DNA of 64,000 bases, from positions 6,696,001 to 6,760,000 of the forward strand of contig OZ024754.1 in the NCBI GenBank assembly GCA_964016885.1, written 5' to 3'. The DNA comes from Eledone cirrhosa (Eukaryota). The notes beneath the pieces were generated by a model. The model did not search any database. It was not told the origin of the DNA and was given only the letters and a program-made list of their open reading frames with translations. Positions 9,167-63,839 of this stretch are shown here, piece by piece (the stretch's first letter is position 1; each line of letters starts with the position of its first letter). The position numbers were made by a program, and so were the translations under genes.

Positions 9167-9378
9167 TTAGTAAAAGGAAAAGAAAATACTGACAAATTTT
9201 TCCCAGTGAAAAATAGTTTAATTAGGAATAAGTATAAATTAGTAATAAGTATTGGTTTTAAGTTTTTACCGGTTGCGCATTTCTAATGCTTTTCAATTTA
9301 GACTAATTTATACTTATTCCTAATTAAACTATTTTTCACTGGGAAAAATTTATCAGCATTTTCTTTTCCTTTTACTAA
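9167..9378. repeat. ~77-bp inverted repeat with 58-bp spacer containing a degenerate hammerhead
   Basis: Arms 9167-9243 and 9302-9378 are near reverse complements; spacer minus strand reads TTGAAAA-GCAT-TAGAA-ATGC-GCAA-CCGG-TA. Confidence 0.75.
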
Positions 9379-10219
9379 TATATCACAACTCGTGTGTTAC
9401 ACCTCTATTTTTTTAAATATATATATATATATATATATAATGGAAAAATTTGAACAGGAACAAAACAGAGAGGCAGTACAACGAATGTTTATATATATAT
9501 ACACATATTAGCTATTTTGGGGAATATATATATACATGCAAAGACACATATGCACGTATGCATACATACACATACATACATACACACATATATATGCAAA
9601 GATACATATGCACATATGCATACACACACACATATATATATATATATATATATATATATATATACATATATGTATATATATATTATATATATTAGATATT
9701 TTTGGGAATATATATATATATATATATATACTTATATATACATATTAGATATTTGGGGAAATATATATATATATATAAATGCATACACACACACACACAA
9801 AAGTACACGAGTATTATTTTTCTTAAATCCGACAAAATTATATCGGATTAAAGAAAAGAGAAGCTTTAGATAAACGTCTCTGGTTTTCTTATTTTACTTT
9901 CTTTTGTAACTTTTGTAACATTTTTCATATATACAAACATATCTATACACACACATATACGTATTTATACATACACACTTATGTGTGTGTGAGTGTGTGT
10001 GTACAGTAAATTGATGATGATATATATTAGTTTAACTCTTGATATAGTTGGTAAATAGTCTTAATGTTTCGGATGTTAGTCCTACATCAGAAGATAGAAT
10101 GAAAATAGAAAGATAGAAGCTAGAAAGAAGAAGAAACAGAAAAAAAGGGAAAGCAGGTGTGTGCTTTAGTCAACTATTTTGTATATATAAATATATATAT
10201 ATATATATATATATATATA

Positions 10220-10413
10220 CAAATTTATCCCGGGGTCAATCGGGGATAACCACAGTAAGTAAGGTACTCAATACATAGCAAAGTATACATATTTAATATA
10301 AAAATGGCTTCTACAGGACTAGAACTGTTTCATTCGGGAGAAATCATCAGGAAGGTCTGATGATTTCTCCCGAATGAAACAGTTCTAGTCCTGTAGAAGC
10401 TATTTCTATATTT
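10220..10413. mobile_element. Family A hammerhead mini-element in (TA)n, head-to-head palindrome
   Basis: Same element at 29949-30144, 31756-31950, 34381-34532, 50000-50193, 50225-50551 and 63550-63697. Confidence 0.8.
10308..10354 (-). ncRNA. Type I hammerhead ribozyme, family A
   Basis: Minus: CUUC-CUGAUGA-U-UUC-UCCC-GAA-U-GAAA-CAG-UUCUAGUC-CUG-UA-GAAG. Confidence 0.8.
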
Positions 10414-10629
10414 AAAAAAAAAATATATATATATATAGAGAGAGAGAGAGAGAGATACATATACACATATGTATATAGATATACATATATATATATATAT
10501 GTATGTACATTTTTATACATATGCACACTCACCCCTACACATTATATATATATGTGTAAAAGGTAAACAGAAATAACACAATCGGTATATATATATATAT
10601 ATATATATATACATATATATATATATATA

Positions 10630-11038
10630 AAGAGAGAGAGAGAGAAAGAGAGAGAGAGAGAGAAAGAGAGGGAGAGAGAGAAAACGAGAGAGAGAGAGAG
10701 AGAAAACGAGAGAGAGAAAACGAGAGAGAGAGAGAGAGAAAGAGAGAGAAAGAAAGAGAGAGAGAGAAAGAGAGAGAGAAAGAGAGAGAGAAAGAGAGAG
10801 AGAGAGAAAGAGAGAGAGAGAGAACGAGAGAGAGAGAGAAAACGAGAGAGAGAGAGAGAAAACGAGAGAGAGAGAGAGAGAGAAAACGAGAGAGAGAGAG
10901 AGAGAGAGAGAGAGAAAGAAAACGAGAGAAAGAGAGAGAGAGAGAGAACGAGAGAAAGAGAGAGAGAGAGAGAGAGAGAGAGAGAGAGAGAAAACGAGAG
11001 AGAGAGAAAACGAGAGAGAGAGAAAACGAGAGAGAGAG
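10630..11038. repeat. (GA)n compound microsatellite
   Basis: Visible. Confidence 0.95.
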
Positions 11039-11394
11039 TTGGTGGAACAGATTGCAAAAGACACTTAAGAAACAATAACAATTTCAAACAAAATCAAACA
11101 GTTACCTTTGCAGATTATCCCAAGAAAATTACTGGTATCAGCATGGTATTAGGTCATAATTATAAAATCTCCAGATATTTGACGTTATTGGTATAGTATG
11201 AGATTTATAATAAACACCGAAGAAGTTACACGTGTTAGCATAGTATTAATTCCATTATGAATTTTTACCCCAGTAAATCACTGGTATTGGCATGACAATC
11301 GAACTATTATGAATCCTCAGAATATCGCCCCCAAGAGAATATATATATATATATATATATATATATATATATATATATATAATGTATATATATA

Positions 11395-11533
11395 GTAATA
11401 ATAATAAATATGAAGACTAAAATCCAAACAGGGCTCGATAAGGAGAAATATATATCAAATATATAAAAACCCTAGAAGATCCCGTTAAGGGTGAAAGCAG
11501 CGATTCTTTGCTTAAACTTTAATCTGTTATTTT
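11395..11533. mobile_element. Family J mini-element (partial, rearranged) in (TA)n
   Basis: Matches 36000-36255 and 58562-59148; contains AGAAGATCCCGTTAAGGGTGAAAGCAGCGATTCTTTGCTTAAAC. Confidence 0.7.
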
Positions 11534-11837
11534 AATATATATATATATATATATATATATATATATATATATATATATATATATATATATATATATATAT
11601 ATATAAATATATATATATATATATATCAAATGCAATAGAAATATAAAAGACAGCGAGAAGCGAAAACCAACCAAACAGTGAGTGTGTTCTGTTATTAATT
11701 CTGGCAATATTACACAAATATGACCCTCCCCAAGTATAACAATATATATATATATATATATATATATATATATATATATATATATATATATAGTGACGAA
11801 ATATGAGTCAATTGCATGAACTCATAATCCTTTATTT

Positions 11838-11893
11838 ACTGCTATATATATTTCGATGATAGCCATTGAATGGCTATGACCTCATCAGGCAGT
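11838..11893 (-). ncRNA. Minimal type I hammerhead ribozyme, family E, in (TA)n-flanked island 11793-11907
   Basis: Minus: ACUGC-CUGAUGA-GGU-C-AUAGCCAU-UCA-AUGGCUAU-C-AUC-GAAA-UAUAUA-UA-GCAGU. Confidence 0.85.
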
Positions 11894-61745: not shown

Positions 61746-62499
61746 TATTATTATTATGGTGGTAGTTGTCGTGGTAGTGGTGGTGCGTTGGATTGGCAGT
61801 AGTAGTAGTAGTATTATTAATAGTAGTAGTAGTAGTAGTGGTAGTAGTAGTAGTAGTGGTAGTGGTAATGGTAGTGGTAGTGGCAGTAGTAGTGGTAGTA
61901 GTAGTAGTAGTGGTAGTGGTAGTAGTAGTGGTAGTGGTAGTGGTCGTAGTAGTGGTCGTAGTAGTGGTCGTAGAGGTGGTGATGTTGATGGGGGTGATGG
62001 TGTTGATGGTAGTAGTAGTGGGGGTGGGGTGCGTTGGATTGGCAAAACAGATAGAGCATCGGACAATATACTTTGTGCCTAAATGAAAAACCTTTTTTTA
62101 TTATTGATATTATTTTCCTTTTTATCACAGATTGCTACAAGTCCGGGTTACATACGAAAATAAAACAGTGTCACTTGAATAAAACACTAGAGAGAAAACC
62201 AACACTTGTTTGTGCTTAAAAATCTCTCTAAAAACAAGAGTTGCAAAACTTACACGATGTCTTCGCAAATTACCCAAAAGATAAATATTGATAAGTATGA
62301 AAATAATGACACAACAACGTCCTTTGTTGATAACATTCGAAAGAATAATACCATCTCAATCAACGGGACATTTTCATCAGCAGCCTCAAACTCAGGTTTT
62401 CAACAAAAACATTTAAAAAAATTTTTTCGTTTCATATCAGTTTTTGCTATCAGTGACGTTAACTTTTACCATTACTGCCCTCTCCTGGGAGATTTTAAG

Positions 62500-62690
62500 T
62501 TAGTTAAGGCCTCCTTCGGTCAAAGCTGACCATGGATAGTATCTTGTTGTCAGCTCTGCTGGAGCAGCGTCTCCAGTGGCTAAACAGACCTATACGTGAG
62601 TGACAGTCTCTGTCAACATCAAACACATCTGGAGCTGGTCTCTGGTCTGTTGGATTTATTGCGCCCCTTTCGCCGGACTCTCCCGTCCAC
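62500..62690 (-). mobile_element. RTE (BovB-like) LINE 3' end
   Basis: DRDCHSRIGLFSHWRRCSS, then CCATGGTCAGCTTTGACCGAAGGAGGCC and a TAACT tail. Confidence 0.75.
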
Positions 62691-62749
62691 AGCTGCAATC
62701 ATCAAACTCTCCTCCACTGATTTGAGGTGTTGATTCTGGGCGATATATT

Positions 62750-63145
62750 AACAGTAATCGGTAGAGCGTCAGACACCATGCTTTGCGACATAGAGTTACG
62801 GCCCTTTGCGTCCTAAGTTTAAATCCCGACGAGGTTAACTTTGCCATTCATCTTTACGGGTTCGATAAATAAAGTACTAGTCACGAACTGGGGTCGAGTT
62901 AATTGACTATCCCCTCCACCAAAATTGTTGACCTTGTACCTATAGTAGAAATCACTATTACAACCGTCTCCTGGGCAGTAGATAGGTAGTAACCGGTAGA
63001 GCGACGGACAACATATTTTGTGGCATATATTTATGGTCCTTTACGTTCTGAGCTCAAATCTCGACGGGGTTAGCTTTGCCATTCAACCTTACGAGGTCGA
63101 TAAAATAAAGTACCAGTAATGAACTGAGGTCGAGATAATCTACGA
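62750..63145 (+). mobile_element. Two diverged main-family SINEs
   Basis: Core TTTGCCATTCA....ACG.G.TCGATAAA. Confidence 0.75.
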
Positions 63146-63262
63146 CCCTTTCAGGAATAAGTAAATGAAGAACAACAACAAGAACGACAACAACAACAGA
63201 ACTGTTGGTCCATTCTGGATCACAATGTCTATCAAGATAGTTAAACATTGTCCTGAAGTACC

Positions 63263-63464
63263 TTAACACTTTAGCATTTACATTACTCTATATATACTAT
63301 TGTATTTTACATATCTTACATAATATCGAATCTACGAAATTTTGATATTTATTTTGAGAACAATACCTTAACATCAGTATAAGTGGCGAGTTACGGCTGG
63401 TTTGAACAGAAAGAGGTGAGAGAATTCTGGCCGGATATGGCTGGTTTAAGTGCTAAATGGTTAA
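63263..63464. mobile_element. piggyBac-type MITE
   Basis: TTAA-CACTTTAGCATTTA...TAAGTGCTAAATGG-TTAA. Confidence 0.55.
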
Positions 63465-63549
63465 AAGACAATGAACGAGACGACAACTCATTACTGAACG
63501 TAGACGGGAACGATACAGGAAACAGAACTAGAACTAACCTGAATATATA

Positions 63550-63628
63550 TTTTAATATAGAAGAGCTTCTACAGGACTAGAACTGTTTCATTCGTGAGAA
63601 ATCATCAGGAAGCTCTTCTATATTAAAA
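63550..63628 (-). ncRNA. Type I hammerhead ribozyme, family A, with 20-bp stem I
   Basis: Minus: UUUUAAUAUAGAAGAGCUUC-CUGAUGA-U-UUC-UCAC-GAA-U-GAAA-CAG...CUG-UA-GAAGCUCUUCUAUAUUAAAA. Confidence 0.85.
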
Positions 63629-63839
63629 CTGTTATACTCTGCTAAGTATTGAGTACCTTACTTACTGTGGTTACCTCCAATTCAACCCGGAATAACTTAT
63701 CTATCTATATATATATATATATATATACGAGTATATATATATATATAAAGGAACGATCGACTTTAGTCAAATCGGACCGAGGAAACAATGTTTCCATCGG
63801 TCTTTCAAATTGCTAATACTATCTATCGGTCGCAACTCC

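Follow-up and report, generated by a model that had tools for sequence, protein, structure and literature searches.

Hammerhead motifs between the TA runs

The stretch analysed here (the window) comprises 64 kb (positions 6,696,001 to 6,760,000) of contig OZ024754.1 of Eledone cirrhosa, an animal with a 3.0-Gb, microsatellite-rich genome, and contains 165 TA runs. Between these runs lie islands with type I hammerhead ribozyme motifs, and the islands are the broken-off ends of about a dozen TA-inserting families of Penelope-like elements (PLEs), mostly of Hydra type. A strict type I descriptor gave 8 matches; the reversed sequence gave none, and 30 local dinucleotide shuffles averaged 0.4. A relaxed descriptor, in which the basal pair of stem II may be U-U, detected 19 cores that have both stem II and stem III, with a stem I of at least 3 bp in 13 and of at least 5 bp in 12; the corresponding values in 25 shuffles were 0.8, 0.12 and 0. 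This excess bears out the original prediction of numerous hammerhead families, all of which were found close to where they had been placed; D, G, H and J were recovered once a U3-A8 core and a long stem II were permitted. Family-specific 3′ boxes extended the set to 39 motifs, complete or partial, in 12 groups (A 14, J 6, B 3, L 3, P 3, C 2, M 2, E 2, and one each in D, G, H and K), and 5,507 bases of the window match family references. The predicted figure of about 25 motifs is thus an undercount if remnants are included.

The motifs combine the CUGANGA (or U3-A8) and GAAA boxes with an NUH site and stems I to III, and are open at stem I. The CUGANGA core proposed for most islands does not hold for every group: L and P have a U3-A8 core (TTGANAA), J carries U4A, and L1 combines U3-A8 with A13C. 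The U4A change is family-wide in J (26 copies; 36206 and 58717 in the window), and A13C is seen in L1 at 9276-9295. These family-wide core substitutions suggest that ribozyme function may be relaxed or altered in successful families. The predicted cut of family A falls after CUGU-A, not at the first GUC, and is backed by a stem I of 6-7 bp.

The families had been described as unrelated in sequence, which does not hold for B, C and M, which can be aligned with one another, or for A and P, which have a common tail sequence. Across 39 B/C/M sequences, 94.4% of stem cells are paired, compared with at most 55% in slid controls, and 66 double-sided changes were counted against 15.6 after shuffling, a count that is not a probability because the covariation sets consist of related sequences. 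Family A stems are 98.4% paired in 29 sequences, with double changes in two pairs. The anticipated stem covariation was therefore observed, whereas the anticipated Rfam support was not: there was no match at gathering score, no hammerhead occurred among 111 matches at E<=10 in 29400-33100, and none occurred among the best 150 of 425 matches. The matches consist only of microRNA-model noise from palindromes and microsatellites.

Many of these features are familiar from the minimal PLE hammerheads described by Cervera & de la Pena 2014 (PMC4209133). That account includes type I motifs in the pseudo-long terminal repeat (pLTR), an extra base after A9, a short palindromic helix III and the U3-A8 variant, in many families per genome that occur mostly as solo motifs from truncated PLEs and in some cases as opposite-strand pairs. 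Here, by comparison, a U-U pair often closes stem II, and the core substitutions of J and L1 are fixed.

Parent elements of the islands

A first-look search gave 10,597 GIY-YIG candidates genome-wide, and protein-coding PLE parents were traced for 8 of the 12 groups, seven of Hydra type and one of Neptune type. The Neptune-type parent is that of family L. At locus L092, a direct pair of L hammerheads, separated by about 5 kb, flanks an open reading frame (ORF) of 938 aa with reverse transcriptase (RT) and GIY-YIG domains; in the L parent both Pfam RVT_1 and GIY-YIG are matched within the single ORF, and a CX2-5CxxC linker (CX5CxxC) precedes GIY-YIG. Judged by this motif only, family L would belong to the Neptune clade. 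The RT, linker and GIY-YIG order, the direct hammerhead pLTRs and the microsatellite insertion all resemble Neptune-type PLEs (Arkhipova 2006, as cited in PMC8557442), from which family L differs in its U3-A8 core.

Family A continues for about 470 nt upstream of the core; still further upstream lie a long microsatellite and then a 750-aa ORF. Of 20 loci taken around the end of this Hydra-type ORF, four of which were chosen for known co-location, 18 contain family A sequence, and the pLTR-then-ORF order is seen in L211 and L222. In the family A parents L207 and L208, TA/TG microsatellite makes up about 1 kb or more of the 3′ untranslated region (UTR), so that the element brings its own type of target with it, and other PLE ends have inserted into this microsatellite. 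Hydra-type ORFs also occur in 18 of 20 B loci, 8 of 20 E1 loci and 6 of 20 P loci, and they form the parents of C (L117), H (L105, L107) and J (L095, L110). Family B has an intact ORF of about 800 aa (L300), and many of its copies, retrieved with the upstream region as genome query, are 99-100% identical over 451 nt; judging by this identity, family B is young.

The Hydra-type parent ORFs are mutually 25-55% identical over aligned parts. When those of A, B and J were compared by eye with section 11 of Craig 2021, an RWK-like motif, DKT, a CxCX5C linker and CxxC/CxH near the end of the endonuclease (EN) were recognized; the C, E1, H and P parents are partial or frameshifted. The ORFs share the blocks of the Hydra-1_Obim protein (PMC8557442 supplement) and have BLAST likeness to Neptune-type ORFs. 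Pfam did not recognize them, apart from a weak GIY-YIG match for L112 (E=8e-4); their identification as PLE ORFs is based on motifs and on this BLAST likeness, and the putative Hydra clade call on the motifs. A protein search returned 20 relatives, none with a clade label, and a "Nematis-like" label for the main parents was rejected after comparison with the Hydra diagnostics.

Partial-tandem pLTRs, 5′ truncation, inverted 5′ copies and an optional tail, all hallmarks of PLEs, are present in L092, L222, L300 and L117. The proposed PLE link is upheld: the hammerheads are of type I and derive from PLEs, they were inserted at (TA)n in very large numbers and often in inverted pairs, and 8 of 12 groups could be followed into PLEs with an ORF. 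The parent of group G was not found in the 24 of 30 loci inspected, and a coding parent of family D was not found in 30 + 11 loci.

Craig 2021 (PMC8557442) described Hydra PLEs that target TA, carry hammerheads, leave inverted copies and have a tail on one side only; one of them, Hydra-1_Obim, comes from Octopus bimaculoides. The likeness extends to the RW motif, DKT, CxCX5C, CxxC/CxH, a C-terminal GIY-YIG-like domain, the pLTR hammerhead, (TA)n insertion and partial tandems. Compared with that description, the present genome has at least seven families at very high copy number, a twin tail hairpin, tails of 68-145 nt instead of 30-40, 3′ UTRs of up to about 2 kb and, in A, an internal microsatellite. 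A Penelope-like expansion has also been reported in O. vulgaris.

Two fixed ends and two-armed inserts

Each well-sampled family has two sharp 3′ ends that abut TA. Measured from C3, the proximal and distal ends lie at 60/128 nt in A, 97/187 in B, 98/188 in C, 102/248 in D, 65/132 in H, 65/155 in J and 144/182 in L1; the P ends are 80 nt apart. Most ends are located in AT-rich, target-like sequence, and the proximal ends of A and P finish in CC. The predicted distance of 35-110 nt between the motif and TA does not describe these data, since the actual distribution is bimodal, about 20-57 or 90-200 nt from the cut.

Among 126 two-armed, TA-flanked inserts, 114 combine one proximal with one distal end, three have two distal ends, two have two proximal ends and seven are unclassified. 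The same one-of-each pattern was found in 38 of 40 unselected inserts from the window and systematic samples, with no pair of like ends, and in 103 of 112 inserts of an earlier set. The arms differ in extent. On the 5′ side the proximal arm exceeds the distal one by more than 15 nt in 42 of the 114 inserts, the distal arm is the longer one in 11, and the two arms share one breakpoint in 61 (27 of 31 in A). The same loop variant is present on both arms in 21 of 22 A inserts, compared with 0.35 expected by chance. In LINE-1 twin priming, two target strands prime two complementary DNAs (cDNAs) on one RNA, which gives an inverted 5′ part. A corresponding non-overlapping form is seen in 25/114 inserts here, with the differences that both start sites are fixed and that the arms usually form an overlapping inverted duplication.

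A different origin of the second arm has to be weighed at this point. One cDNA started at the distal site could fold back, through stem I or another hairpin, the second arm being a DNA copy that is trimmed by the EN at the AT-rich proximal site; RYTC and GARY, the half-sites of the tail hairpin described below, would then be a DNA element of EN recognition or of a promoter. The same-point breaks and the near-identity of the arms are what fold-back would give, Craig 2021 attributes the tail to EN-mediated resolution, and Frangieh 2024 cites earlier work in which tail DNA was required for EN recognition. In the 42 inserts with the longer proximal arm, however, each arm holds sequence that the other lacks, so that neither can be a DNA copy of the other and both were copied from a template; for these inserts simple fold-back was rejected as the only mechanism. 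Many long single-armed copies, moreover, end at the proximal site, and both tail boundaries of the Anolis PLE are RT starts in vitro.

The 5′ breaks do not point to ribozyme cleavage. Of 52 breaks in family A, 26 lie at -8..-2, the 5′ edge of the hammerhead, and one lies at the cut site (+39); no pile-up at the cut site was found in A, B, C or J. Hammerhead cleavage was therefore rejected as the source of the 5′ ends, and in family A the position of the breaks argues that cleaved RNA is not the main template. The A break zone contains a CAG acceptor-like word and also an initiator (Inr)-like word, either of which might explain the clustering; Inr-like words occur about once per 45 nt, and the break clusters of B, C and D match none. 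In family D, a strong hairpin 95-115 nt upstream of C3 is the breakpoint of many copies, and the break spikes of C (-33), J (-114) and P (+38) may be reference-subfamily artefacts. An empty-site comparison for pre-existing TA runs yielded 0 empty sites from only 11 usable events.

A hairpin downstream of each end

A hairpin of the form RYTC...GARY starts 3-9 nt past each end. RCTC followed by GAGY directly past the proximal end is common to eight window families, and a fixed hairpin rule was run on 22 families, 19 non-Neptune and three of Neptune type. The first RYTC lies 3-8 nt past the proximal end in 18 of the 19 non-Neptune families (background 0.089). Four Watson-Crick pairs are formed in 15 of the 18 families with a rule-picked partner (permutation p=5e-6), and 8 of 11 held-out families, a set including nine without clade assignment, pair as well (p=0.003), p-values that are overstated because the families share ancestry. 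The pairs occur as ACTC/GAGT, GCTC/GAGC and GTTC/GAAC. H was missed by the partner rule although GAGT is present, and G fits the pattern.

The comparison was extended to 77 Hydra-type loci in metagenome assemblies, with 58 hammerhead copies in 50 loci having enough downstream sequence. In these other organisms a hairpin lies 36-60 nt after the cut site in 46 of 58 copies (42 of 50 loci), with the consensus GCTCY...RTHGAGCACT, and a second hairpin follows 47-83 nt further on in 25 copies from 24 loci; a looser rule gave 46/71 against 8.5% in shuffled sequence. Two hairpins in other organisms implied that a second hairpin should lie directly past the distal end here as well. It was found in read-through copies of B (+8), C (+9), D (+9) and J (+6); no read-through copy that could be judged was available from E1, E2, H, P or M. 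In L328 and L393, from other organisms, a TA junction could be compared with its read-through twin, with offsets of 8 and 7. On the metagenome contig L319, a Hydra-type junction that otherwise reads through has a TA run between the tail and the second hairpin, precisely at the expected distal site.

In favour of fold-back with a DNA element for the EN, the two hairpin half-sites are inverted copies of one 4-mer. The half-site spacer varies from 8 to 52 nt, however, and B, C and D mix the ACTC/GAGT and GCTC/GAGC versions within one element. Taken with the arms of the inserts, this leaves fold-back with EN trimming as an unlikely explanation.

The two primings might also be positioned only by A/U pairing of the nicked TA target with AU-rich spots of the RNA, the hairpins serving packaging, translation or splicing control. 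Such pairing would suit the many ends in AT-rich sequence, and family A follows the one-of-each pattern without a clear second hairpin. Yet, although these tails have many other AU-rich spots, end and hairpin keep a fixed distance of 3-9 nt; this holds for the first site in 18 of 19 families, for the second in 4 of 5 window families with read-through copies, and for two loci from other organisms. The proximal ends of A and P finish in CC. We therefore regard positioning by A/U pairing alone as very improbable.

At the pLTR-ORF junction of the Neptune-type loci L092 (L2) and L097 (L1), the place of two hairpins is taken by a word of 7-8 nt directly past the proximal end that complements a word directly past the distal end, and the complementary words show matching changes between L1 and L2 (two families only). 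These words could form one long-range helix linking both start sites.

A hammerhead in a PLE end at TA is a known arrangement. Neither the twin hairpin nor the one-of-each count was found in full-text searches of open-licence papers, in which both are apparently undescribed.

A model of double priming

The origin of the tandem and inverted insertions of PLEs and of their optional tail is presented as an open problem by Craig 2021 and Schostak 2008. We consider it fairly probable that the islands are formed by a PLE protein dimer that nicks both TA strands and starts reverse transcription at two hairpin-positioned RNA sites. The predicted dimer would dock on both hairpins with one RT per hairpin, and each of the two fixed RNA sites would be positioned by the small hairpin 3-9 nt downstream of it. 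Each nicked TA strand would prime one cDNA, and the two truncated cDNAs would be joined head to head at their stops, producing an inverted structure with the tail at one end only. The hammerhead would merely be carried along, its cleavage not defining the inserted ends.

As template, the model proposes the 5′ leader of the mRNA, which would yield short islands, or the internal junction of a tandem transcript, which would yield long copies. The two hairpins occur together only at places where a pLTR runs on into the following ORF, which makes one of these two templates likely. Transcription of Penelope begins within the upstream pLTR (PMC2377424); leader copying would then give precisely such short islands, and a template at the leader or the tandem junction would explain why PLEs need tandem copies.

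The closest biochemical precedent is the Poseidon PLE of Anolis carolinensis (PAc), as reported by Frangieh 2024 (PMC11167929). Its protein, a predicted dimer, cuts and extends both strands of an AT-rich target. Reverse transcription begins at two internal positions, which delimit the tail at the pLTR-ORF junction, and hammerhead mutants insert normally, so that cleavage is unnecessary for insertion. PAc belongs to another clade, and an AC-rich stem-loop within its ORF contains the starts, for which no strand bias was reported, whereas the starts described here lie upstream of the ORF, each with its own hairpin, and genomic inserts contain one of each.

Several observations weigh against the model or limit its reach. 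In the in vitro experiments of PMC11167929, the Anolis protein did not favour one strand at either of the start sites. The same-point breaks in 61 of 114 inserts are also explained by simple fold-back. Family A has no recognisable second hairpin in read-through copies and nonetheless keeps the one-of-each pattern, and the three Neptune-type families lack a GARY partner, though L1 and L2 have two ends, so the hairpin is not universal. The hairpin statistics are affected by the shared ancestry noted above, by end anchors that were picked by eye and by a script that favoured a read-through copy with RYTC. In other organisms GCTC/GAGC is nearly invariant (about 98% of 61), and the covariation of the hairpin thus rests on the families of this genome. 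As to the ribozyme, J and L1 have fixed core changes, and none of 11 monomers formed a complete three-helix hammerhead at minimum energy, which fits the palindromic helix III and the dimer action proposed in PMC4209133, yet provides no evidence of activity.

Whether the model extends beyond this genome seems to us evenly balanced. In this wider form, Hydra-clade PLEs of aquatic invertebrates would have conserved tandem hairpins (GCTC...GAGCAC) at the pLTR-ORF junction, each docking one subunit of an RT-EN dimer and fixing one start site, and every insertion would be a programmed double priming.

Family D, tandem arrays and genome-wide load

Family D is a unit of 2.06-2.08 kb in partial tandem (L297, L298; 99.6% identical in the L298 tandem). 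None of its ORFs exceeds 97 aa, and tblastn gave no match below E=0.08; the unit is therefore likely to be a non-autonomous passenger. It keeps the hammerhead, the tail, both hairpins and the two-ended insertion. Elsewhere in the genome, head-to-tail hammerhead arrays occur at L180 (19 motifs, 468-nt spacing), L191-L192 (about 469 nt) and L168 (311 nt), and by their layout these look like true non-LTR (long terminal repeat) retrozymes.

The original prediction had seen in the islands a community of ribozyme-bearing mini-elements; these would be self-standing, non-autonomous, retrozyme-like units that cleave themselves, circularise and are copied in trans. Family D and the arrays (spacing 311-470 nt in L168, L180 and L191) would suit such elements, short copies far outnumber long ones, and G, M and K have no traced parent, those of M and K not having been searched for. 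But 8 of the 12 groups continue into ORF-bearing parents and are ends of full-length PLEs, D is the only non-coding mobile unit of the 12, the 5′ ends vary and lie off the cut site, and the window copies are solo or inverted. A separate community of this kind is thus a doubtful reading, to which we assign little probability.

The comparison with animal non-LTR retrozymes (Cervera & de la Pena 2020, PMC7229834; Li et al. 2026, 10.64898/2026.07.22.740005), non-coding elements with a type I hammerhead for which an origin from PLEs is assumed, leads to the same distinction. D and the outside arrays fit that description, while the window islands are not head-to-tail repeats; such repeats were found only in the D partial tandems and in the arrays outside the window, and the absence of a coding parent does not apply to the 8 groups with ORF-bearing parents. 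D itself, at about 2.07 kb, exceeds the consensus range of 51-972 bp (10.64898/2026.07.22.740005) and retains the PLE tail, both hairpins and the two-ended insertion.

A single descriptor was applied to three samples. The 200 kb taken from nine large contigs yielded 18 motifs, the 190 kb from small chromosomes yielded 45, of which 25 belong to two tandem arrays, and 200 kb of window flanks yielded 38; shuffles gave 0-3. Extrapolation gives about 1.9x10^5 (1.1-3.1) plus 1.0x10^5 (0.6-1.5) dispersed motifs, that is, a genome-wide figure of about 3x10^5, which is rough because no more than 39 samples of 10 kb underlie it. For comparison, Acropora has been credited with more than 6,000 motifs, which fall into 16 families, and axolotl with up to 120,000 (PMC7229834), while 2,000-9,000 per genome are quoted for minimal PLE hammerheads (PMC4209133).

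Inserts and other repeats in the window

Table 1. Hammerhead-bearing inserts and SINE-like repeat copies in the window, in window coordinates (SINE, short interspersed nuclear element)
Feature	Position	Arms and strand	Remarks
A, two-armed inverted	10220..10422	distal arm - (C3 10350), proximal arm + (C3 10357)	stem I truncated
A, two-armed	29949..30144	proximal arm - (C3 30008), distal arm + (C3 30014)	motif of proximal arm intact
A, first tail hairpin ACTC...GAGT	30080..30098	+	directly beyond proximal end
A, variant subfamily, two-armed	31756..31951	C3 31887 -, 31896 +	both hammerheads intact, compensatory stem I change
A, single arm	34396..34532	+	C3 34401, predicted cut after 34439, tail hairpin 34467, distal end
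A, cluster of three two-armed inserts	50002..50550	C3 50051 -, 50415 -, 50423 +	plus damaged arms
A, two-armed	63543..63702	C3 63608 -	joined inside stem I
B	20739..21045	distal arm -, proximal arm + (C3 20953)	parent L300; tail hairpin from 20822 in distal arm; hammerhead of proximal arm intact
B	30892..31085	+	inverted 30-nt distal stub and proximal arm with hammerhead C3 30988
B	34152..34334	-	hammerhead C3 34244
C	32304..32731	proximal arm - (C3 32402), distal arm + (C3 32538)	Hydra-type, parent L117; tail hairpin 32642
M, two degenerate C-related copies	32747..33073	C3 32831 +, 33064 -	
D	55433..55885	distal arm -, proximal arm + (C3 55787)	end of 2.07-kb non-coding PLE-like unit; tail hairpin from 55571 in distal arm
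E1	11793..11907	-	Hydra-type parent, e.g. L303; hammerhead C3 11888, proximal end
E2, E1-related	18902..19139	+	hammerhead C3 19022
G	22263..22435	-	long stem II; C3 22396, proximal end
H	29446..29588	distal stub -, hammerhead C3 29521 +	Hydra-type parent L105/L107
J	36009..36256	distal arm -, hammerhead C3 36206 +	Hydra-type parent L095/L110; U4A core
J, two inserts	58563..59147	C3 58717 +, about 59082 +	tail hairpin GCTC...GAGC from 58789
J, two-armed remnant	11395..11534		truncated core; extra J tail stub 12029-12092
L1, two-armed	9168..9416		Neptune-type PLE end; U3-A8 core with A13C
L2	53811..54103	both arms; core 54020 +	pLTR of intact Neptune-type PLE L092; U3-A8 hammerheads
P, two-armed	30209..30395	tail hairpin -	Hydra-type parent, e.g. 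L395; broken inside stem II; tail hairpin from 30280
P, further pieces	31108-31226, 53750-53807, 58259-58495		
K, older hammerhead	21889..21985	+	C3 21899; not TA-bounded; layout resembles pLTR motif of Poseidon-like L101
SINE-like repeat	19529-19966, 23278-23473, 29760-29934, 42183-43015, 50715-50922, 57407-57621, 61356-61740, 62734-63143		

The SINE-like repeat of roughly 190 nt occurs in more than 15 copies, several of them in inverted pairs. A further repeat family of 560 nt or more starts at TA-rich junctions (4425-5008, 16930-17312, 49529-49974 and 53177-53743), and no hammerhead was detected in it by the descriptors used. Long palindromes without a hammerhead lie at 31983-32197, flanked by TA, and at 26277-26381; the former could represent either a further family's two-armed insert or a miniature inverted-repeat transposable element. 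Tandem arrays occupy 38026-40047, 44335-45764 and 54550-55230, with units of about 52, 103 and 33 nt. On the plus strand, 56480-56990 holds a broken piece of a non-LTR retrotransposon ORF with an RPD...E motif, presumably of the restriction-like-endonuclease type.

Implications for Penelope-like elements

PLEs are the retrotransposons closest to telomerase, and the one-of-each rule together with the twin hairpins provides a specific RNA signal and a specific prediction for their insertion. Family B, with its intact ORF and many near-identical copies, offers a test system. Since Rfam gave no matches and Pfam did not recognize the Hydra-type ORFs, surveys of ribozymes and repeats probably fall far short of the true numbers in microsatellite-rich genomes. 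If the model is correct, programmed double priming would account for three features of PLEs, namely their tail, their inverted copies and their dependence on tandem copies; its output in this genome, about 3x10^5 hammerhead-bearing fragments, would be among the largest ribozyme loads reported, and family D would represent 2-kb non-coding passengers bridging PLEs and retrozymes.

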